A stretch of 41,253 nucleotides of DNA. Origin: a virus. Lineage: Duplodnaviria > Heunggongvirae > Uroviricota > Caudoviricetes. Positions 3,501-32,672 of this stretch are shown one piece after another (the first letter of the stretch is position 1; each line of letters begins with the position of its first letter). The notes below the pieces were generated by a model, which saw only the letters and a program-made list of their open reading frames with translations, searched no databases and was not told the origin of the DNA. The stretch lies in IMG/VR virus record IMGVR_UViG_2563366955_000016; one strand, 5' to 3'. The translations under genes were made by a program, and so were the position numbers.

Positions 3501-3983
3501 CTGTCCGGCTGACGTGCTGGCTGCGCGTGCTGAGCCTGCAGCATCAGTCGCATGGGTTGCCGCCTCACGGGCAGATGTGCCGGCATCGCCGGCTGACTTC
3601 TTCGCGGCTGCCGTGTTCTGTGCCACTGCGGACGCGTTACGCACCACCTCTTCCACCATCAGTTCAAAACGGCGCAGTGCCTCTGGCCGGACATCATCCT
3701 CCGTCATTGCACCGAGGAAATCATTCAGTGTGCCCGGCTTTGAGTCCTCATATACGGTGATAATCCCGGCGTGTGACGGCGGGAATCCCTCCACCAACAG
3801 ACTGACGCTGTACTGACCATACTCGACGTCCATTGTGTAACGCCCGGCTTCATCCGGGTTTTCTGAGGCCACTGTGTTCACCACCACCGTGGTGCTGTTG
3901 CGCCTGGCCTTTAGCTGAATGGTGCAGTTTTGTATCGGCTTACCTGCGCCATCTTTCAGTACACCTGAAATCCTTACTGCCAT
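585..3983 (-). CDS. side tail fiber protein (Stf-like), 1132 aa
   Basis: N-terminus [28 protein letters not shown] resembles lambdoid Stf; long Ala/Ser/Thr-rich low-complexity central repeats; C-terminal His-rich HxH repeats typical of fiber tips. Confidence 0.85.
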
Positions 3984-3993
3984 ATTCCCCCCA

Positions 3994-4020
3994 CAAAAAA
4001 GCCCGCCTGAACCGGCGGGC
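3994..4020 (-). terminator. Rho-independent terminator downstream of lom
   Basis: Minus strand reads GCCCGCC-GGTTCA-GGCGGGC followed by TTTTTTGTGG. Confidence 0.6.
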
Positions 4021-4047
4021 TGTCATAACACTGTGTTACCTGGCTAA

Positions 4048-4647
4048 TCAGAATTTATAACCGACACCAACGATGAAACTGTTGGTACGCCAGTCACCGC
4101 TGCCGGAGCCTTCATAAGCGACGTCAACGGCCACGGATTCGGTCGGGTTAAACTGCACGCCAGCTCCCCACGCCAGAGACGTGTTGCTGTGGCGACCGTC
4201 ATCACTTCCGGTCAGCACATCGTGCGTTTTCCCCTTGTTGTCAGTTACGCGGATATAATCCCCGGAGAAAGTCGACACACGGCTGTAAGCCATACCCGCC
4301 ATCGCATACGCGCTGAACCATTCATTCACGCGCACAGACGGCCCCGCCATCACGCTGAACCAGCGATTACGCACGGAATCCTCATGCCAGCGGGTATCGC
4401 TGTAATGCGTTTTTTGCTCATCTTCAGCGTTGGCATAACTGAATGACGTAATCAGCCCCAGCGTGTCCGTAAACTCATAACGGTATTTCACGTTAATCCC
4501 GTTCAGATTTTCGCTGCCGGGAGCGTTCGTACGGGCATGAAGATACCCTGCGCTCAGTGTGGCCTGCTGCTCAGACGCCCATGCAGGCGCACCGGATACG
4601 GCCAGACAGATGGCTGCGGACAAAATGGCTGCACAAACTTTACGCAT
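4048..4647 (-). CDS. lom: Lom/Ail/PagC/OmpX-family outer membrane protein, 199 aa
   Basis: Signal peptide MRKVCAAILSAAICLAVSGAPAWA, beta-barrel-like alternating sequence ending GYKF; located between J and stf exactly as lambda lom. Confidence 0.9.
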   Translation of the reverse strand: MRKVCAAILSAAICLAVSGAPAWASEQQATLSAGYLHARTNAPGSENLNGINVKYRYEFTDTLGLITSFSYANAEDEQKTHYSDTRWHEDSVRNRWFSVMAGPSVRVNEWFSAYAMAGMAYSRVSTFSGDYIRVTDNKGKTHDVLTGSDDGRHSNTSLAWGAGVQFNPTESVAVDVAYEGSGSGDWRTNSFIVGVGYKF

Positions 4648-4671
4648 AATTACCTCTCGCTTTTCTGCAAT

Positions 4672-4695
4672 AAAAAAGGCGCCATTTCTGGCGCC
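4672..4695 (-). terminator. Rho-independent terminator downstream of J
   Basis: Minus strand GGCGCCA-GAAA-TGGCGCC followed by TTTTTTA, between J stop (4715) and lom start (4647). Confidence 0.55.
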
Positions 4696-4714
4696 CGTAT
4701 ATGGGTTATAAAAT

Positions 4715-7700
4715 TCAGCTGATACTGATGCCTGCGGTGGCTTTCTTCATCACCACAACCAGCAAATCGCTGATACTTGCTGTGGGATACCAGTCATTTA
4801 CCAGCCATGCTGACACCGAAAACTCCAGCGTCATGTGGCCGTGACCAGCTGGCATATCAATAACACCACTGTAAATCAGCGTATTATCCAGCGCGGTACG
4901 GTTATAAATTTCAGCACCATTTTTCTTCACTATCAGGCGGCATGACGAATAAATATCGTTATTCTCCCGCTCATGTTTAGCGCCGCAGAATGCCACCGCC
5001 GGAATAACAATTTGCCTGTCAAAAGGCTGATCGTCATAAATCCTGACGGTAATGGTCCCTGATGGCCACCGCTCCGGTGCCCGGGAGTCCCGCGGGAAAG
5101 CCTTACCCACTGTTTTGACAATATCGCCTTCAATCTGGTTGGCTGACAGTTTCCCTTTAATCTGACAGTTCTCATTTATCGTAACGTTGTTGAGCGTCCC
5201 GGAGTTCGCATTCACACTGCCACTGATATCTGCATTTTTAGCGGTCAGCTTTCCGTCCGGTGTCAGGGAAAATGCAGGAGGATTACCGCCGCTGGTAATG
5301 GTGGGAGCCGTCAGATATTTCAGGAACACTTCATTCATGAATATCTGATCACCCTGACCAACAAACATCGGTTTTGTGTTGCCATTTGCAGGATTAATCA
5401 TCGCAATCCTGTCTGCCGCCAGCAGCACCTGACTCTGCATGCCGTCGGGGGTGTTCTCAATACCGGCACCGATACCCGCGATATAAAGGCGTCCGTCCTG
5501 CATCTGCTGCAGCTTCACAGCCCACATGCTGTTCAGATTATTATTTGTATCAACCTGAACCTTCTGTATCTGCTGGATCGCTGCACTCTGGTCTTCCAGT
5601 TTCTTATTGACGGTCTGTGTGATTTCATTGCTGACATCCGTAATGGATGTCCTGATTTCAGCCAGGTCAGGCGCAAGCTGACCGTTATCAATCTGCGTCC
5701 ACAGCTCCTGAGCCAGATGGGTTTTCCCTATCTCGCCTTTGAAAAAATCCAGATAGCCGGATGCGTCATCACTCGGCTGACCAACAGCCTCCACGAATGC
5801 CGATTTGCCAACGGTGTTCACACTGCGAACGTAAAAATAATAATTATGGCCCGGCCTGATATTGATACTGGCGGCTATCCAGTACAGCGCCGTGCCAAGA
5901 TAGCGTGCTGTGGTTTCAACCTGCCTGATATCCGCAATCCGCTTTTCCGAGAACCAGAACTCAAACTGTACCGTCGGATCATAAACCGCAAGATGCGGCG
6001 TGGCGGTTATCTGAAAATAGCCCGGCGTCAGCTCAATCCGCGACGGCGCTGCCGGGGCGGCAATCCGGAACGATACCGACGCCGGATCGCCCTGCTGTCC
6101 CCGGGCATTTACCGCCCGGACCGTCAGCGTGTAACGCCCCAGCGCCAGTTGCCTGAAGCGGTAAGTGGTTTCCGTCGTCCGGGCCGTGCTGACCAGCCGC
6201 TCACTGCCGTCATCGGCGGCCACGGTCAGGCGAAGCATAAAGCTCACGCCCTTCACCACCTTCGGCGTATCCCAGCGCGCCAGCACCTGGTATTCCCCGC
6301 TGTCTGCGGTGACTTCGGCGGTCAGGTGCTGCACCGCTGGCGGCGTGACACCATTCACCGTGCCGCTCTGGTCGCCGTCAAAGTGCGCCCCGTTATCCAC
6401 GATGGCTTCTTTTTCCGGTACATGCTGCACGGCGGTGATGGCATACGTGCCGTCGTCGTTCTCACGGATACTCACGCAGCGGAACAGGCGCTGGCGCAGC
6501 GTCGGCAGCTTCAGCCCCCATACGCTGTATCCGGCAACGCCGTCAGGAACACGGCTCACTTTTACCTTCACGCCGTCGGTGACGGACTGGACCTCCACGC
6601 TGACCGGATTGCCACTTCCGTCAACCAGGCTTATCAGCGTGGTACCGGAGGATGGCAGCGTGATTTCACGGTCGAGCGTCAGCGTCCGGGTCTGGCTGTT
6701 CACCGCCAGCACGCGCCCGCCGGTGCTGATCCCCGCATAGTCATCATCGCAGATTTCAATGACATCGCCCGGCACATGGCGAAGCCCTTCCGCACCCACG
6801 CTGAAGTCCACGGTCTGCGTTTCCAGTAGTTCCGTTTTAATCAGCCACAGCCCGGCGCGGTGCGCCTGCCCCCGGCTGGTACAGCCAAAGGCATCCATCT
6901 TCGTGACGTTACGACCGTAACGGAGAATGGCCTGCGTATCTTCAACAAGCTCTGTCGCCGTCTCCCAGCCGTTATCCGGGTCAATCCAGTTCACCTCAAC
7001 GGCATTATGACGGTCCTTCAGGGCACTGAAGCTGTAGCGGAACGGCGCGCCATCATCCGGCATCACCACATTACTGCGGTTATAGGTCCACACCTTATCC
7101 GACGGTCGGTCCTGCACGAACGTCAGCGTCTGCCCGTTCCATACCGGCATACAGCGCATCGCCGAGCAGAAATCACTGAGAACATCCCACGCCTTGCGCT
7201 GTGTGGTCAGGTAGGCATTACAGGTGATGCGCGGCTCCGTGCCACCAAAGCCATCCGGCACCGACTGGTCGCAATTCTGGCCGATGACATACAGCGCCCA
7301 TTTGTCCACATCCGCCGCACCGAGACGCTTCCCCATGCCGTAGCGCGGATGGGTCAGCATATCCCACAGACACCAGGCCATGTTGTTGCTGTATGCTGGC
7401 TTAAACGTTCCGTCCCAGATACCGCTGTATTGCCGCGTCTGCGGGTTATAGTTCGACGGCACCTGCAGAATGCGCCCGCGAAGATGATAATTACGGCTCA
7501 CCTGCTGGCTGCCGAACTGTTCCGAGTCCACCTGCACGCCGACCAGTGCCGTGTTCGGGTAGCACTGTTTCACATCGATGATTTCGGTGTATGACGACCA
7601 GAGCGTTTTGTTCTGCAGCTGGTCTGTGGTGCTGTCCGGCGTCATTCTGCGCATCCGGATATTAAACGGGCGCGGCGGCAGGTTATCCACCACCACCGAG

Positions 7701-9547: not shown

Positions 9548-10246
9548 TTACTGCGAAAGTTTGTTAATGGAAAGGTAGCCGCCAAAATTGCCGACGTTAT
9601 TGCGGAACTTGCAACCACTCAGGCATTTGCTGCATTTATCCTTCGTGATATCGGACGTTGGCTGGTCATATTCATCCGCGACCGCCGGGCCATCATAACC
9701 GCACTCATCGCCGCGGTAGATCCAGGTGCAGGTGTTGGCCAGCATGATGCGCCCCGGAAAAACAGCACCGTCCGTTTCCGTCGGTGTGGACAGCACAAAA
9801 GAGGCACTGACCGCGCTCAGTTCGCTGCACTGTTCGATGCGCCAGCGGCTGATCACCTCCTGCTCCGGATCGGCGTCACTGTTTCCGTTGACGAAGTTCA
9901 CCGCATCCAGAAAACGGGCGTAAACCTTACGCCGGACCACCGTTCCGCCGACCAGACTCTGCAGATCTTCCGCCATCCCGGTGACCATGCCGTACAGATT
10001 AGAGACTTTAAGCGTTGGCCTTGCACTGGCTCCTTTGCCGTTCATCTCAAATCCGCTTCCCTGAATGGGATAAGCCTGATACTGCCGCCCCTGCCAGGTG
10101 ACTGGTTCACCTTTTTCGTTCTGCTCATTACAGAAGAAATAACGATCTCCGCCGACCTCTGTCAGATCAATTTCCCAGAGCACGACCAGCGCGGATTGCT
10201 CCGTTTTAGTGCACTCATTGAGTGTTTCCTGCTGTATATCCTGCAT
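9548..10246 (-). CDS. L: minor tail protein L, 232 aa
   Basis: Position between M and K, lambda L-like sequence with C-terminal Cys cluster. Confidence 0.85.
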   Translation of the reverse strand: MQDIQQETLNECTKTEQSALVVLWEIDLTEVGGDRYFFCNEQNEKGEPVTWQGRQYQAYPIQGSGFEMNGKGASARPTLKVSNLYGMVTGMAEDLQSLVGGTVVRRKVYARFLDAVNFVNGNSDADPEQEVISRWRIEQCSELSAVSASFVLSTPTETDGAVFPGRIMLANTCTWIYRGDECGYDGPAVADEYDQPTSDITKDKCSKCLSGCKFRNNVGNFGGYLSINKLSQ

Positions 10247-24133: not shown

Positions 24134-24616
24134 TTATCTGAGACATTGCTCACGAATGTATAGCTGTGCCCCTTCCAGTTGCTTCTGCATCGTCATCAAC
24201 CGTTCTCTGAGGGTGAAATAATCCCGTTCAGCGGTGTCTGCCAGTCGGGGGCTGGTTGCATTATCCACGCTGGTGGGTCCGGTGGCTTCACGCACGGCTG
24301 CGGAGCAACTGGCATTGACCCGCAGGCGCTTACGACCAGCGGCAACATCAGCGCGCAGAGTTTCATTTTCAGCTTTCGCATTGGCTAATTCTCTCGAGTA
24401 CTTTGCATCGAGCGCAGCAACATCACGCTGACGCTGTTGCATGTCAGCGATGGTGGCAGTCGCCTGCTTCAGCTCACTGACTTTTTTATCACGCTGTTCT
24501 TTGTAGGCGATGGCGTTATCACGGTAATGATTGACCGCCCACGACAGGCAGACGATGGTGCAGATAACCAGAGTATAAATAATCGCTGCGACTCTGCTCA
24601 CTGATCTATCCCCCAA
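24134..24616 (-). CDS. Rz: Rz i-spanin, 160 aa
   Basis: N-terminal TM helix, coiled-coil periplasmic domain; follows the endolysin. Confidence 0.88.
24196..24381 (-). CDS. Rz1: Rz1 o-spanin lipoprotein embedded in Rz (+1 frame)
   Basis: Lipobox LVVSAC and Pro-rich mature region; fully nested in Rz; true start probably the internal MKLCALM. Confidence 0.8.
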
Positions 24617-26013: not shown

Positions 26014-26088
<75 letters not shown>

Positions 26089-26091
26089 ATA

Positions 26092-26167
<76 letters not shown>

Positions 26168-26169
26168 AC

Positions 26170-26246
26170 TGGACCGCCACCGGGGACTCGAACCTCGCAC
26201 ACTCAACTTAAAGGGTTGACGCTCTTTCCTGATGAGCTAGTGGCGG
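26170..26246 (-). tRNA. tRNA-like gene with non-canonical anticodon loop CCUUUAA (UUU at positions 34-36, C at 33); isotype uncertain
   Basis: Perfect 7-bp acceptor (CCGCCAC/GTGGCGG) with C1:G72, D-arm, perfect anticodon stem TCAAC/GTTGA, T-loop TTCGAGT, encoded CCA; C33 and a T-stem A:C mismatch are atypical. Confidence 0.5.
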
Positions 26247-26247
26247 C

Positions 26248-26323
26248 TGGTGGCCCTTGCTGGATTTGAACCAGCGACCTGGCGATTATGAGTCGCTCGC
26301 TCTCACCACTGAGCTAAAGGGCC
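26248..26323 (-). tRNA. tRNA with CAU anticodon, ileX-like (tRNA-Ile2, lysidine) or elongator Met
   Basis: Hand-folded cloverleaf: GGCCCTT acceptor, anticodon loop CTCATAA, T-loop TTCAAAT, encoded CCA; close to the E. coli ileX sequence as I recall it. Confidence 0.75.
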
Positions 26324-27575: not shown

Positions 27576-28697
27576 TTACCCGAGCACGCCGGTTGCAAAG
27601 GCGTGATCAAGAAAACGAAAAATTAAATCAACCTGGGAACCATGCTTTTCTTCGAACGCCAGCGGATCCGCATGAAGTTCGTTGTGATGTTCCCGGCACA
27701 ACGGTAGCGTGAAAATATCGTGGGCCTTTGTTCCCATCCCTCCCTGACCGTGACCAATCAGGTGATGGGGATCGTCGGCTGGCTGACCACAACACGCACA
27801 CGGCTGTGTCTTCACCCAGCGCGTATATTTCTCATTTACCCAACGGCGACGTTTAGGTCGCCTCATGAAAGATTCCGGAGACTCCGGATCAACGGTGATG
27901 CATACCACCGTCTTTTCCTGTGGTGGGTTCTGTTGCTGGTGGGCATGAGGCAACGGCGCAAGATTTTTTGTGCGCTGCTTCAGTATGCTGGTGGCGGTCT
28001 GCTCTCCCGGTACGATGTCGCTTTCGCGGTACAAGGAGCGGATTTTTTCCGCACGTAACCCCAGAGAACGACGTAATACTGCCTCCGGAAGCGCGTCCGC
28101 CACCTGATTGCAGACCGCCCACCAGGATAATTCAGCCAGCGACAATTCCCGCTCCTGCGTGCCATTCATTGCATGGCGTATGACGTCAATCATCCATGCT
28201 GACAGGTTTTGATGAGCAAGTTGCCCGAGTGATTCGGATGTCTGGTCACGCAACTGGTTGTCGCAGTGCCAGCACAACACCATCGCGCCGGTACCGTAAC
28301 GATGTATGACGATTTCACTGTGATGATAGTCACCATGAGGCCACTGGCAGGATTTGACATGACGCAACAGCCAGTCAGACAGTGCCCCAGCGCCGCCAGC
28401 AGCACGAATCACCCGCTCATCGCTGAAAAATGGCAGTAATGATTTATCCTCCGCCAGCGGCTGGCGAACGGCAGGGACGACTCCGGACGGCAGACCGCGC
28501 ATGCTTTTCGGTTCAGGCTCCACCAGCACTCGAGGGTTATGAAATACTTGCATGGATTCACGGCCCGGCCTAAGGACCACCAGCCCGAGTTCCGGTACCA
28601 GAACAGGTCGAAGTAATATCCGCACGTTACCTCCAGATCCGTTGCTGGTATGTGCGGGATGGGCGCGGTGGGCGTTCGGAATAAGGGAGCCTGACAT
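27576..28697 (-). CDS. DUF968-family (YdfU-like) nin-region protein
   Basis: C-terminal Cys/His-rich segment CACCGQPADDPHHLIGHGQGG...CREHHNELH typical of lambdoid DUF968 proteins; 5' end overlaps the upstream ORF so the true start is probably internal. Confidence 0.65.
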   Translation of the reverse strand: MSGSLIPNAHRAHPAHTSNGSGGNVRILLRPVLVPELGLVVLRPGRESMQVFHNPRVLVEPEPKSMRGLPSGVVPAVRQPLAEDKSLLPFFSDERVIRAAGGAGALSDWLLRHVKSCQWPHGDYHHSEIVIHRYGTGAMVLCWHCDNQLRDQTSESLGQLAHQNLSAWMIDVIRHAMNGTQERELSLAELSWWAVCNQVADALPEAVLRRSLGLRAEKIRSLYRESDIVPGEQTATSILKQRTKNLAPLPHAHQQQNPPQEKTVVCITVDPESPESFMRRPKRRRWVNEKYTRWVKTQPCACCGQPADDPHHLIGHGQGGMGTKAHDIFTLPLCREHHNELHADPLAFEEKHGSQVDLIFRFLDHAFATGVLG

Positions 28698-28905
28698 AGA
28701 TTATCCAGTGACGATAATCGAGGCTGAGGGCTTTCTTAATCTCGTATCCGCGTCTGCGATAGTTATGAATTAGCCATTCGGCCTGTTCTTCAGTACATGG
28801 GTCATGCTGGAACCAGTCAGATTTGAAAGTGCGGGAACGCCGCCCGTGCCTGCTGGCAAAGACGGCAGAATCATCAGAATTGTGTAATTTGGTATCGTGC
28901 GCCAT
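28627..28905 (-). CDS. hypothetical nin-region protein, about 92 aa
   Basis: ORF; start set at an internal Met; function unknown. Confidence 0.4.
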   Translation of the reverse strand: MAHDTKLHNSDDSAVFASRHGRRSRTFKSDWFQHDPCTEEQAEWLIHNYRRRGYEIKKALSLDYRHWIIYVRLPYSERPPRPSRTYQQRIWR

Positions 28906-28990
28906 CGGTTGTCTCTGCTGGCGCAGCAGGTGCCAGTTGTTCAGGCTGGCGTGCGAATTGTAAACCAGAATGCCAGGAAAAAACAAAACC

Positions 28991-29008
28991 CGCCGAAGCG
29001 GGTATGCT
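28991..29008 (-). terminator. Rho-independent terminator with UUCG tetraloop downstream of the lipoprotein gene
   Basis: Minus strand ACCCGC-UUCG-GCGGGU followed by UUUUGUUUUUU. Confidence 0.6.
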
Positions 29009-29201
29009 AAAACAAACTGAAAGTAATATACCGGACTTGTAAAGGAACGATAGAATAATTATTGGATTAAACCCTGACTCAATCCAGATTTCATAGGCAA
29101 CAACTACGGACTAATCATCACAGTCATGTTTGATAGACTTAGTCCACATTGGGTGAGGGTTTACGGCGTTTTCACTAATAATTTATCGTCCAAGCTATAC
29201 A

Positions 29202-29594
29202 CTACTGCCCTGTTTTAACGAAGTTTTTAAAGGAAACAACTGCCTGATAGGGGTTTGGTTGACAGCCAAACATATTATCGCAAAAAGGCTTGATGAAAAT
29301 TCTTGAGGATCCATCTTCATTTGGCATTTTACTCACCTGATAAGCGAGGAATGGACTATTTGGAGAGGGATTATAAGTGGAAATTAGCGTGTCTGTCGCC
29401 GTTTGAATTTTCCATGAGGAATTATTAGCCAACCAGAATTGCGCTCGTTTCCAATAAAAGTCACATTGCTTTTCATCATTACATGTTAGTGGCTTCATTG
29501 CTTCTGCTTTCAACGCTGGATCGACCTTTGCTGCACACCCTCCCAACATTACTGTTGCAATCATTACACCTGCGACTAAAACAAGTTTCTTCAT
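29202..29594 (-). CDS. secreted lipoprotein, 130 aa (moron)
   Basis: Signal peptide with lipobox MLGGC, six further Cys, AT-rich codon usage, own downstream terminator. Confidence 0.7.
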   Translation of the reverse strand: MKKLVLVAGVMIATVMLGGCAAKVDPALKAEAMKPLTCNDEKQCDFYWKRAQFWLANNSSWKIQTATDTLISTYNPSPNSPFLAYQVSKMPNEDGSSRIFIKPFCDNMFGCQPNPYQAVVSFKNFVKTGQ

Positions 29595-29657
29595 CTCCCT
29601 GCCCCATCAATAAAAGTTCGGTTCTCTAATAACTAGAGTTAATCAACGGAAAAAACG

Positions 29658-29673
29658 CCGAAGCGGGTTAAGT
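29658..29673 (-). terminator. Rho-independent terminator with UUCG tetraloop downstream of hok
   Basis: Minus strand CCCGC-UUCG-GCG followed by a U-run; same hairpin core as at 28991 and 13829. Confidence 0.5.
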
Positions 29674-29737
29674 GCGGGTGCGTTGAGGATGCCTGACACA
29701 TCAGAGGTGGCGAGGGATTTCTCCCCCGCCAGGTCTC

Positions 29738-29893
29738 TTACTCCTCAGGTTCGTAAGCTGTGAAGACAGCGACCTCCGTCTGGCCGGTTCGGATTCGTAC
29801 CTCGCAGAGGTCTTTCCTCGTTACCAGTGCCGTCACAATGACGGTTAAACAGATGACGATCAGGGCGATTAACATCGCCTTTTGCTGCTTCAT
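29738..29893 (-). CDS. hokD: Hok/Gef-family type I toxin (HokD/RelF-like), 51 aa
   Basis: MKQQKAMLIALIVICLTVIVTALVTRKDLCEVRIRTGQTEVAVFTAYEPEE: single TM helix plus conserved C-terminal Hok motif; AAGGAG RBS upstream; track ORF 29738..29950 has an in-frame upstream extension. Confidence 0.85.
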   Translation of the reverse strand: MKQQKAMLIALIVICLTVIVTALVTRKDLCEVRIRTGQTEVAVFTAYEPEE

Positions 29894-30815
29894 AGCCTGC
29901 TTCTCCTTGCCTTTCGGCACGTAAGAGGCTAACCTAGATTTGCCGTTCATAGATTGAGCCTCAGATTAATGTTAAGCGTCTTGCAGGACGCGTAATGTTA
30001 ACTGGGGCTTTTCTCTATCTGCCTTTGGTGTTCATGCCTGAGGCAGATAGCCTCAAGCACCCGCAGCAATTCTACTTAACTCACGTCACCTCGCCAATAT
30101 AAAATCAATCAGAAAGGCGATCCATAAGAACAACAGCAAGGCAATAAATTGCCATTACAGCAGCAATAGCCAGCGCACATTTGAGAACCAGCACCACAAC
30201 CTCCTGTATTGGACGTACACCAGTCCTGATAAATATGAGGCTGTCTCGTCAGTGATTCAATACAACTATTGGGTATAGTTTCTGTGATTTTGTTCTGTAG
30301 AAATGGAACACAACAACCAGTCACCACCAGCACTTCTTTAAATACGCCAAGTCCGACGCAAGCTAACTTTCTAGTCCGCTTTGAGCGAAAAGCAGACTGT
30401 CACGCGTTGAAGTTAATTGTATTACTTAGATAAACACTATCATTTTCCTGACGTTAAGTTGTATCTTTGATAGGATTAAAAAACGTATAGATAGCTTATG
30501 CTACTGAGGGAATAAAAATGACGAAAATTAGTGAACGATGGAAGCACAATGGCATTACTGAAGGTTATTGCAATATTTGTGGGAAATATGGTTTGCTCAC
30601 AAAAGATCATGTTCCTCCAAAGTGCGCCATAACCTTAGGCCCTGTTTTGCAGAAAACAGTTAGCGAATTTTTTGGTATTCAGGAACCAGTTAAACCATTA
30701 AATGCTAAAAATGGCTCTTATTTCAGAACCATTTGCAGCCACTGTAACAATAAGGTATTAGGTGGGCTCGATGTTGCAATTGAAAATGTAACAAAGTCCT
30801 TTAAAGAACAGTTAA

Positions 30816-32010
<1,195 letters not shown>

Positions 32011-32672
32011 TTAAGTCGATATATGAATGGTATGAATGTATATCCATTCATTAGAATACCTTTTGATAGCATATCTTTCACTAAGGCTATGATTGGGCAC
32101 GTGCTATCAGCAACTTCAGTTGAAGATTGTAAAAAAGAACCCGTAGATAGCCCCTTCTATACACCTTTAAAGGATTATGTTTTGGGTAAAAATTCAAGTT
32201 TTGAGGAAACTCATGATATTTACTACTGGTTTTACCCACACAGAATGCACATATCCGCTCAAAGTGTAGCATTTATGAACGAAGGACATGTGGCATTTAT
32301 TTGTGCTTTACATTTTTTCCCTATCGGTTTTATTATCACAATGAAAAATGAAGGAACATACCCTGCCCACTCTACAAAATTAGAACTTGAAGATAAATTC
32401 CTTACATTTAATATGACCTCTATAAATTATGAGTATACGACATTTCCATTTGTAAATCTTAAGGGAAACCAAATGTATGCGATAAGCAACGGTCATACTT
32501 GTGTGAGTTATCCAATAATTAAGTGACGGCTAAATCATACAATCTACGCATGTTCACTTTCTACATATACCATCTATAATGTCCGCTGTTGGCACAAAGC
32601 GGACAACCACGCTAGCTCTACCCTGTGCCACAAAATGTCAATTTGCATCTGAACTAATGCACTTTAATCTCG

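Follow-up and report, generated by a model that had tools for sequence, protein, structure and literature searches.

A 665-bp lipoprotein moron at the hokD terminator of a lambdoid prophage, with a possible role in phage exclusion

Envelope lipoproteins encoded by morons are a known theme in phages, with Cor, Llp, Rtp45 and Bor as its described cases. The gene for lambda Bor lies beside the lysis genes, and the known phenotype of Bor is serum resistance. Cor, of the phi80/N15/HK022/T1 type (PHROG 1119), is a small phage lipoprotein with a signal peptide and a lipobox. The exclusion lipoproteins T5 Llp and Rtp45 of phage Rtp target FhuA and LptDE (PMC9586334, PMC12685063), and the known exclusion lipoproteins act on FhuA or LptDE from the periplasmic face of the outer membrane (PMC12685063, PMC9586334). 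Rtp45 is a lipoprotein of about 6 kDa, and exclusion factors are described as preventing adsorption to cell fragments after lysis too (PMC12685063). As for the morons themselves, the classical definition of the HK97/lambda type includes a promoter of their own (PMC3594210). Here we describe a lipoprotein that belongs to none of these families. It is encoded in a stretch of 41,253 nucleotides from a member of the Caudoviricetes (IMG/VR record IMGVR_UViG_2563366955_000016), the whole of which is called the window below. The parts of the gene are the following.

29202..29594, minus strand: coding sequence of a 130-aa prolipoprotein, WP_000737636.1, annotated "hypothetical protein" (recognised from the ORF, PHROG 16082, selection and AlphaFold2)
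29535..29594, minus strand: signal peptide and lipobox, residues 1-20, made up of MKK, LVLVAGVMIATVM and LGG followed by C (PS00013-type pattern)
29595..29649, minus strand: leader of 55 nt whose ribosome-binding region is G-rich, UGGGGCAGGGAG immediately preceding the AUG (read from the sequence)

An earlier, sequence-only reading of this DNA had announced a 130-aa Cys-rich lipoprotein with a lipobox, and this was borne out. The protein begins with MKKLVLVAGVMIATVMLGG, followed by the cysteine from which the mature protein of 111 aa starts (Cys20), and has four further cysteines at positions 38, 44, 105 and 111. The check proposed at the time, the presence of a lipoprotein signal, also came out in favour of that reading: the lipobox VMIATVMLGGC (residues 10-20) satisfies the PROSITE PS00013-type rule, the n-region carries Lys2 and Lys3, and residues 4-19 have a mean Kyte-Doolittle hydrophobicity of 2.4. 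The N-terminus therefore has what characterises a signal peptidase II substrate, namely a basic n-region, a hydrophobic h-region and a lipobox Cys 15-35 residues in. A lipobox is found in 151 of 179 family sequences. In Lol sorting, residue +2 determines whether a lipoprotein is sorted to the outer membrane (the "+2 rule"). Residues +2 and +3 after Cys20 are here Ala-Ala, and Asp occupies +2 in none of the family sequences; under that rule, outer-membrane sorting would be implied. The four cysteines of the mature part, invariant or nearly so in distant homologues, probably form two disulfides. Upstream of the gene, the ribosome-binding block is also present in the copies of Pantoea type, as tggggatagggat plus the start codon.

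Comparison with the described systems shows likenesses in architecture and proposed action, and differences in the protein itself. The resemblance to Cor is confined to the signal peptide: the PHROG match covers residues 1-44 (E = 0.007), and hhalign against genuine Cor aligns 17 signal-peptide columns only, the mature domain here being larger and unrelated. Membership of the Cor family (PHROG 1119) was rejected, since there is no mature-domain homology. Both proteins are nevertheless encoded by add-ons near tail genes in relatives, and for both, action from the inner side of the outer membrane would be plausible. With T5 Llp and Rtp45 the protein shares the proposed action, in which a periplasm-facing lipoprotein binds a receptor complex against the incoming phage, and in phage genomes the genes of all three are linked to tail or receptor-binding genes. 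The mature domain of 111 aa (~12 kDa) is, however, about twice the size of Rtp45 and differs in fold from the description of that protein. A family of the Llp/Rtp45 type did not appear in the PHROG scan at E <= 1, neither Llp nor Rtp45 was among the best 50-60 structural matches listed per structure search, and other known exclusion-lipoprotein families were absent from the PHROG, Pfam and PADLOC scans. Lambda Bor and plasmid Iss are likewise moron-encoded outer-membrane lipoproteins of similar size, in AT-rich DNA and with a terminator of their own, but they gave no sequence match, and no Pfam Lambda_Bor match rose above noise. The only other lipoprotein of the window is the spanin Rz1, encoded within the Rz gene at 24196-24381, about 5 kb from the 130-aa gene. 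An o-spanin (Rz1-like) is a small proline-rich lipoprotein whose gene lies in or beside an i-spanin gene of the lysis cassette. Since Rz1 is thus found elsewhere, such an identity was rejected; the match to PHROG 812 (E = 0.21) is restricted to the signal region.

The lipoprotein gene lies in a discrete insertion, whose bounds and neighbours are as follows.

29738..30062, minus strand: hokD toxin gene (29738-29893) and hok/sok leader, the upstream neighbour (RefSeq annotation of the identical locus)
29004..29668, minus strand: 665-bp inserted cassette, a moron (bounds from comparison with empty hokD-rem junctions)
29650..29668, minus strand: degenerate upstream hairpin copy, ACCCGCUUCGGCG-UUUUUU, its 3' arm lacking two G (direct repeat D1)
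28978..29003, minus strand: intact intrinsic terminator with a 6-bp stem, UUCG loop and U-run (fold -13.1 kcal/mol, z = -3.2)
28627..28905, minus strand: rem-like 92-aa gene (PHROG 1212), the downstream neighbour, which directly follows the hokD terminator in empty sites

Alignment of empty sites from APEC and O157 with the occupied locus leaves a clean 665-bp gap. The cassette is bounded by a direct repeat (D1, spacing 665) that is the terminator hairpin, duplicated, and comparison with the empty sites places the insertion point exactly at the hokD terminator hairpin. A reconstructed empty site is matched without a break by thousands of genomes. The empty junction was found in ~2,400 otherwise collinear E. 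coli prophage loci and the occupied one in ~255 genomes; correspondingly, the cassette interior is present in 255/5,426 E. coli genomes (~5%). In the 57 IMG/VR loci with the E. coli allele, it sits between hokD and the rem-like gene wherever both flanks are present. The insertion falls in the early-right (nin) region; the prophage is a lambdoid one of E. coli, integrated at the mtfA/tRNA-Ser site. On one side stands hokD, with a hok/sok leader matching Rfam RF01794 (111.7 bits, 29888-30062), and on the other the rem-like, DUF968, RusA and Q genes, so that the position between nin-region genes and hok given by the sequence-only reading was correct. So was its AT-rich setting, with 39.7% GC in the cassette against 54.5% and 52.1% in the flanks and 50.8% in the whole window, and its view of the segment as a cassette is well supported by this discrete insertion. 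Like morons of the HK97/lambda type, the segment separates genes that are neighbours in related phages, deviates in base composition from the surrounding phage DNA and has a terminator after its gene. These comparisons show it to be a moron: the nin region has gained 665 bp of AT-rich DNA.

The two ends of the cassette differ from the classical moron, in that a promoter of its own is not recognisable and the terminator is the displaced one of the upstream gene. The intact downstream hairpin, ACCCGC-UUCG-GCGGGU (29003-28988) followed by UUUUGUUUUUU, is identical to the single hairpin of the empty sites and is conserved after nearly all copies. Judged by its sequence, 28978..29003 is the original terminator of hokD, which the insertion has displaced and which now closes the lipoprotein transcript. 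The UUCG-tetraloop terminator that had been ascribed to the cassette is thus present, but by origin it is that of hokD. The description of the cassette as stand-alone likewise holds for its 3' end, which has this terminator, and not for its 5' end, where a promoter scan of the minus strand upstream of the gene detected no consensus sigma-70 site. The upstream hairpin copy is crippled in 56/57 E. coli copies, and its minimum-energy fold (-4.5 kcal/mol, z = -0.36) lacks the UUCG hairpin. Given a crippled hairpin after hokD and the lack of a consensus promoter between it and the gene, we infer that the gene is likely transcribed by read-through from hokD or the early operon. Read-through would start at the repressor-independent hokD promoter; during induction the antiterminated early operon would also supply transcripts, and the intact downstream hairpin would end them all. 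Some 28 nt ahead of the start codon there is a weakly conserved motif, TAGGAT/TAGAGA.

The position of the insertion indicates how it arose. In a relative of Pantoea type, the gene is preceded at a distance of ~60 nt by a near-identical hairpin, AACCCGCTTCGGCGGGTTTTT. Because of this hairpin, and because the insertion lies exactly at that of hokD, recombination between two look-alike terminator hairpins explains the cassette junctions. The locus is a clean, base-resolved case of moron gain by this route, with the weakened hokD terminator as a side effect of the insertion.

The gene itself is real, well conserved and under selection. Its dN/dS of 0.08-0.18 indicates purifying selection, it is intact in 59/60 E. 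coli copies, and against the copies of Pantoea type the synonymous sites are saturated while protein identity is still 73-85%. PHROG 16082, a family of unknown function, matches over the full length (E = 2.6e-84, residues 1-130 against profile positions 1-130), and PHROG 4186 provides a distant link (E = 2.2e-8). A homologue search, which had also been proposed as a check, returned relatives in many genera, and the family counts at least 1,141 clusters at 50% identity in Proteobacteria. The dN/dS, the intact copies, the homologues and the confident structural model described below led us to reject a chance ORF or decaying gene. That the gene is a hitch-hiking remnant without function, carried along with hokD, is scarcely credible. 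Its presence in only ~5% of E. coli genomes and the existence of one nonsense and one frameshifted allele would fit a remnant, but the selection analysis largely refutes that reading, and the size of the family also argues against it. Pfam, NCBIfam and PADLOC scans returned no family for the lipoprotein; DUF6491 matched 6/36 family members, with a best E of 0.005, below threshold; and PDB sequence searches, whether the query was the single protein or a profile, gave noise only. In the literature we found no paper on this protein and none citing its accession. By sequence comparison, the protein is a member of a large unnamed proteobacterial family without a Pfam entry. A pattern scan of genome contigs gave one locus, in Variovorax, and scans of viral contigs with distant family members gave one locus each or none.

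AlphaFold2 predicts the mature domain as a compact helix-grip alpha/beta domain, with a mean pLDDT of 84 and values >90 over most of that domain. At a cut-off of E <= 0.001, Foldseek found no match among viral (BFVD) or PDB structures. The highest-ranking structural matches are Flpp3 (DUF3568, Francisella) and the N-terminal helix-grip domain of BamC, with Foldseek E > 0.01 and TM-scores mostly <0.5; at 11-15% identity and with no sequence-level relation, these are fold neighbours whose own functions do not transfer to this lipoprotein. They nevertheless speak for a doubtful, though still serious, alternative, namely that the protein is a host-fitness or virulence conversion factor that alters the lysogen envelope, like lambda Bor/Iss, and is unrelated to phage entry. 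The envelope properties that it might affect, with the same degree of doubt, are serum or antimicrobial resistance, tolerance of envelope stress, or the handling of outer-membrane proteins. Both fold neighbours are bacterial envelope lipoproteins, and Flpp3 carries the label "F. tularensis virulence determinant" in its deposition. The family includes chromosomal members without phage genes nearby as well as fusions to PDZ or DUF4124 domains, which together suggest a more general envelope role. The moron positions, the isolation of carriers from many hosts (APEC, ETEC, EAEC 042 and STEC included) and the high conservation of the mature domain across genera, as expected of a conserved host target, point the same way. 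On the other hand, the structural matches are weak, neither Lambda_Bor nor any other Pfam family is matched, and repeated placement among tail-tip genes is unexpected for a pure host-fitness gene.

This placement is apparent from the homologues. Seven independent ones lie inside tail-tip clusters (gpH to gpJ) and three in immunity or early regions.

Enterobacter: between gpH and gpM
P0014: between gpM and gpL
Pantoea: between gpI and gpJ
L077 and L078: immediately ahead of gpI and gpJ
Bordetella: between a DUF1833 (gpL-like) protein and a gpJ-like protein
GTA-like tail module: homologue within the module
Phytobacter remnant: adjoining gpM
Achromobacter: directly after a cI-type S24 repressor, same strand
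L093: ~750 nt downstream of a cI-like gene
Yersinia: between ParDE and sieB/cI

Temperate phages of Enterobacterales and Burkholderiales have thus acquired members of the family on repeated occasions, in many cases inside the tail-tip cluster. These are positions of lysogenic conversion or exclusion (tail-tip, after a cI-type repressor, near sieB), an observation that speaks for exclusion. Alongside the lipoproteins that are 73-85% identical, the J proteins are only ~30% identical and their C-terminal receptor-binding parts are unrelated, so the lipoprotein does not appear to co-evolve with a particular receptor-binding protein; a co-evolving partner of the J receptor-binding domain was rejected for want of co-variation. 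A phage of Pantoea type, L079, carries both a homologue and a true Cor, and the two are therefore not simple alternatives. In L077 the neighbouring second lipoprotein aligns in its signal peptide alone and was rejected as a paralogue.

Most relatives have the gene inside the late tail operon, in the orientation of its neighbours and separated from them by short gaps, and three tail-module copies (L079, L086 and L091) have no consensus sigma-70 site upstream. Together with the lack of such a promoter in E. coli, this speaks for the idea that the protein is a lytic-cycle helper only, expressed with early or late phage transcripts and not in the lysogen, and acting during infection. It might, for example, keep progeny off the debris of lysed cells, as exclusion factors do when they stop adsorption to fragments after lysis (PMC12685063), or modulate envelope events at lysis or tail-tip maturation. 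We consider such a helper, in either form, quite unlikely. The same three copies each end in a terminator of their own within the late operon, which marks the gene as an add-on and not a tail gene and is usual for morons under independent regulation. In Achromobacter the copy comes after the repressor gene, on the strand of the latter; constitutive read-through would be possible past the crippled hokD terminator; and the protein is no spanin.

T4 Sp blocks the tail lysozyme, and by analogy the lipoprotein might act in the periplasm as an inhibitor of, or immunity protein against, a cell-wall hydrolase or toxin. We regard this as improbable, as we do the targets that could be proposed for it: gpK, the NlpC/P60-JAB tail-tip protein of incoming lambdoid phages, or else an effector of T6SS or bacteriocin type. 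A small, disulfide-stabilised domain facing the periplasm would suit such an inhibitor, its homologues adjoin gpK, gpL and gpM, and its high conservation fits a conserved enzymatic target. The idea is, however, purely inferential; the protein matches no Pfam inhibitor or immunity family and no PADLOC defence family, and the best structural matches listed include no lysozyme or amidase inhibitor fold.

Our best guess remains the one that the sequence-only reading had put forward as a candidate, entry (superinfection) exclusion by the lipoprotein, and we hold it tentatively, as possible and somewhat short of probable. That the gene is often found among tail-tip genes in related phages makes a role in blocking other phages plausible. 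In such a mechanism the protein, exported by Sec and lipidated at Cys20, would be made by the read-through described above. At the periplasmic face of the outer membrane it would then bind a conserved envelope component or the incoming tail-tip machinery, which is the weakest step of the scheme. Binding would block adsorption or DNA entry of other phages and would spare progeny from loss on cell debris, following the logic of Cor, Llp and Rtp45 with an unrelated, larger protein. A number of observations are either against exclusion or neutral: the absence of co-variation with J, the coexistence with Cor, the lack of an evident promoter in E. coli, the chromosomal relatives, the PDZ fusions and a mature domain unlike that of Cor.

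A more specific form of the exclusion hypothesis, which we consider unlikely, is that the family constitutes a new receptor-independent class of entry-exclusion factors, directed from the periplasmic side at a conserved envelope machine or at the incoming tail-tip complex (gpH/gpK/gpJ core). Independence from the receptor would explain the repeated insertion at different places within the gpH-gpJ cluster, the 70-85% identity in spite of swapped J receptor-binding domains, and the coexistence with Cor. Should the protein indeed stop phages from entering, it would represent a further, widely distributed mechanism of exclusion, relevant to phage host range, to phage therapy directed at E. coli, Enterobacter and Pantoea, and to the catalogues of defence systems, which currently miss this lipoprotein family.

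The remainder of the cassette follows the stop codon.

29004..29201, minus strand: 3' untranslated part of the cassette, 198 nt (inverted repeat I2, 29068-29083 / 29148-29163)

An Rfam scan gave no match in the cassette, and an RNA family there was rejected, the Rfam matches being limited to the hok/sok leader. A gene remnant derived from the donor was likewise rejected for the 198-nt region, as blastn and tblastx against the flanks of homologues gave no similarity. The region folds with z = -2.2, and some E. coli copies have a shorter 3' variant, with 129 nt to the hairpin.

The window is a complete lambdoid prophage in which, from left to right, tail fibre genes are followed by J, I, K, L, M and H, an HK97-type head, terminase, lysis genes, four tRNAs, Q, RusA and DUF968, and then by immunity, recombination and integrase genes. 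E. coli strain 165 carries an otherwise identical copy, integrated beside tRNA-Ser and mtfA. The surroundings of the lipoprotein gene are as follows.

Features around the lipoprotein gene
26014-26323, minus strand: cluster of four tRNAs (Gly-UCC, Thr-UGU, Lys-UUU and a CAU-anticodon tRNA), between Q and the holin gene
Downstream of the lipoprotein gene: rem-like 92-aa gene, then DUF968, RusA and Q
28985-29003: downstream copy of the direct repeat
29004-29201: 3' region of the cassette (198 nt), with inverted repeat 29068-29083 / 29148-29163
29202-29594, minus strand: lipoprotein ORF (130 aa), in the early-right direction of transcription
29650-29668: upstream copy of the direct repeat
29738-29893: hokD, upstream neighbour of the lipoprotein gene, in a complete hok/sok locus (Rfam sok model, 111.7 bits)
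30816-32010: IS5 element, flanked by TTAA at 30812-30815 and 32011-32014
30848-31864, plus strand: IS5 transposase ORF

In strain 165, RefSeq assigns the CAU-anticodon tRNA to Ile, and the plus-strand gene starting at 30518, which IS5 splits in the window, is whole (269 aa, hypothetical protein).

The sequence-only reading had proposed a Cys-rich lipoprotein of 130 aa, and this holds. The protein (WP_000737636.1, 'hypothetical protein' in RefSeq) starts with MKKLVLVAGVMIATVMLGG followed by CAAKVDP and conforms to the PROSITE-type lipobox pattern, with Cys20 as the predicted lipidated residue and Ala at +2; four further cysteines (38, 44, 105 and 111) are invariant or nearly so among distant relatives. 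The ORF is intact in 59 of 60 E. coli copies, the other having a nonsense codon. The E. coli alleles compared give a dN/dS of 0.08-0.18, and between E. coli and Pantoea-type genes dN is just 0.09-0.13, with synonymous sites saturated. The lipoprotein is a real, constrained protein, and a gene without function is very improbable. An AlphaFold2 model built from a 12-sequence alignment (mean pLDDT 84, above 90 across most of the mature domain) predicts a helix, a short strand, a long helix, four strands and a C-terminal helix.

The gene had also been described as a cassette in AT-rich DNA beside hok, with its own UUCG terminator. Its segment has 39.7% GC against 52-55% in the flanks, and the 665-bp unit is bracketed by a 19-nt direct repeat with copies 89% identical. 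We rebuilt the presumed empty site (the hokD-rem junction without the insert) by fusing both flanks across a single hairpin copy. The rebuilt sequence matches many E. coli prophages without interruption (96-98% identity), including those of O157:H7 and APEC; aligned with the window, empty sites show a 665-bp gap with clean edges. At least 80% of the rebuilt sequence is covered in 2,693 genomes, and the interior of the insert is present in just 255 of 5,426. In the 57 IMG/VR loci with the E. coli allele and in two induced phages, the insert occupies the hokD/rem-like interval wherever both flanks are present. The downstream hairpin, a strong intrinsic terminator (-13.1 kcal/mol), is the same as the sole hairpin of empty sites. 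With two G missing from its 3' arm, the upstream copy can no longer fold into the UUCG hairpin (-4.5 kcal/mol, not better than shuffled sequences); 56 of the 57 copies share this crippled form. In the Pantoea-type phage L078 the motif is intact (AACCCGCTTCGGCGGGTTTTT) and lies about 60 nt upstream of the phage's homologue; L078 also shares the ribosome-binding block. Judged from these sequences, the simplest history of the insert would be recombination between two look-alike terminator hairpins. The cassette reading is thereby borne out and sharpened to an exact 665-bp moron whose junction is apparently hairpin-mediated, whose upstream terminator is crippled and for which no promoter is evident.

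The E. coli lineage AF40 (locus L004, about 1640-1990) has another AT-rich insert at this point, ~290 bp long and different from the cassette, and the hokD-terminator/rem junction therefore appears to be a hot spot of repeated insertion. The AF40 insert has no annotated gene; its site is equivalent to ~28950-29003 of the window. In the IMG/VR locus L036, an IS10 at 3589-4926 sits exactly in the crippled hairpin, placing the lipoprotein gene ~1.3 kb from hokD. Owing to its inverted repeat (16 nt, 88% complementary, arms 64 nt apart), the 3' untranslated region of the cassette folds stably (z = -2.2); 29004-29201 had no match in Rfam. The region is shorter by about 69 nt in some other E. coli copies.

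We found no consensus sigma-70 promoter from the crippled hairpin to the start codon, nor upstream of three homologous tail-module copies, each of which ends in its own terminator. hok/sok loci have a promoter independent of the phage repressor, and the insertion has replaced the strong hokD terminator by the crippled copy (29650-29668). The E. coli gene would thus probably be transcribed by read-through from hokD, with additional transcription expected from the antiterminated early operon on induction. Given the crippled copy, the 3' end of hokD mRNA in the ~255 cassette genomes should differ from that in empty-site prophages, and this might alter how hok mRNA folds and is processed.

Word-indexed searches retrieved nothing beyond close relatives (Escherichia, Enterobacter, Pantoea, Phytobacter, Yersinia) and remoter ones (Achromobacter, Bordetella, Caballeronia). 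Every one of them is annotated 'hypothetical protein' and lacks a Pfam domain. An exhaustive profile search retrieved at least 1,141 representatives of 50% clusters at E <= 0.001 (532 at E <= 1e-10), mostly of 125-135 aa. A lipobox is present in 151 of the 179 family sequences examined, and in none is the +2 residue Asp. The family corresponds to PHROG 16082 (function unknown), distantly linked with PHROG 4186, and the gene is present in only 2 of 50,697 deposited phage genomes, both induced E. coli prophages. Several longer members (P0034, P0101, P0103, P0133 and P0155; 228-266 aa) carry a C-terminal PDZ domain, and in P0065 the lipoprotein domain is fused with DUF4124. Such fusions hint that, in the periplasm, the lipoprotein domain may work with a peptide-binding module. 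The family is new and uncharacterised, within the familiar category of prophage-borne envelope lipoproteins, and its moderate interest comes mainly from its size and its recurrent association with tail-tip gene clusters, where homologues occur at seven different positions.

Positions of homologues
Enterobacter hormaechei (81% identical): tape measure protein/gpM interval
P0014: gpM/gpL interval
Pantoea ananatis and L079: gpI/gpJ interval
L077 and L078: just upstream of gpI and gpJ, then a second, unrelated lipoprotein
Bordetella: flanked by a DUF1833 (gpL-like) protein and a gpJ-like protein
One homologue: GTA-like tail module
Phytobacter remnant: adjoins gpM
Achromobacter: immunity/early region, immediately after the S24 repressor, same strand
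L093: immunity/early region, downstream of a cI-like gene
Yersinia: immunity/early region, between ParDE and sieB/cI
One homologue: mobile-element region
Caballeronia and Achromobacter kerstersii: chromosomal, phage genes absent

The second lipoproteins directly after the homologue belong to PHROG 890 (L077, 5374-5784) and PHROG 914 (L078, 5332-5679), and the tail-tip region of Pantoea-type lambdoid phages acts as a lipoprotein island. Lipoproteins with a signal peptide are not known as virion parts; since the three scanned tail-module copies also have their own terminator, the tail-tip homologues are add-ons, and their position is tied to the host-range module.

Genes of exclusion lipoproteins are linked to receptor-binding genes, and the tail-tip homologues show the same linkage to host-range genes. 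This placement, together with that in immunity regions, favours the superinfection-exclusion role proposed from sequence, a reading that is supported only in part: the mature domain bears no relation to Cor, and the scans run gave no Llp/Rtp45-type match. Exclusion lipoproteins act in the periplasm on FhuA and LptDE (PMC9586334, PMC12685063), and Rtp45 (~6 kDa, PMC12685063) is about half the size of the mature domain. The Pantoea-type lipoproteins are 73-85% identical to that of the window, whereas the J proteins beside them share only ~30% identity with J of the window, over the N-terminal ~960 residues alone, and the C-terminal receptor-binding parts have no match. Further, the phage L079 carries a genuine Cor (9634-9915, PHROG 1119, E = 6e-26) downstream of J in addition to its homologue. 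The existence of chromosomal members and of PDZ fusions suggests that the lipoprotein domain itself may bind a conserved envelope component. Among the other readings, a Bor-like host-fitness role is somewhat unlikely, a function confined to the lytic cycle unlikely, and an inhibitor or immunity role quite unlikely. On these grounds (Cor, size, J, L079, chromosomal and PDZ members), an entry-exclusion or adsorption-blocking role remains a guess, possible but short of probable.
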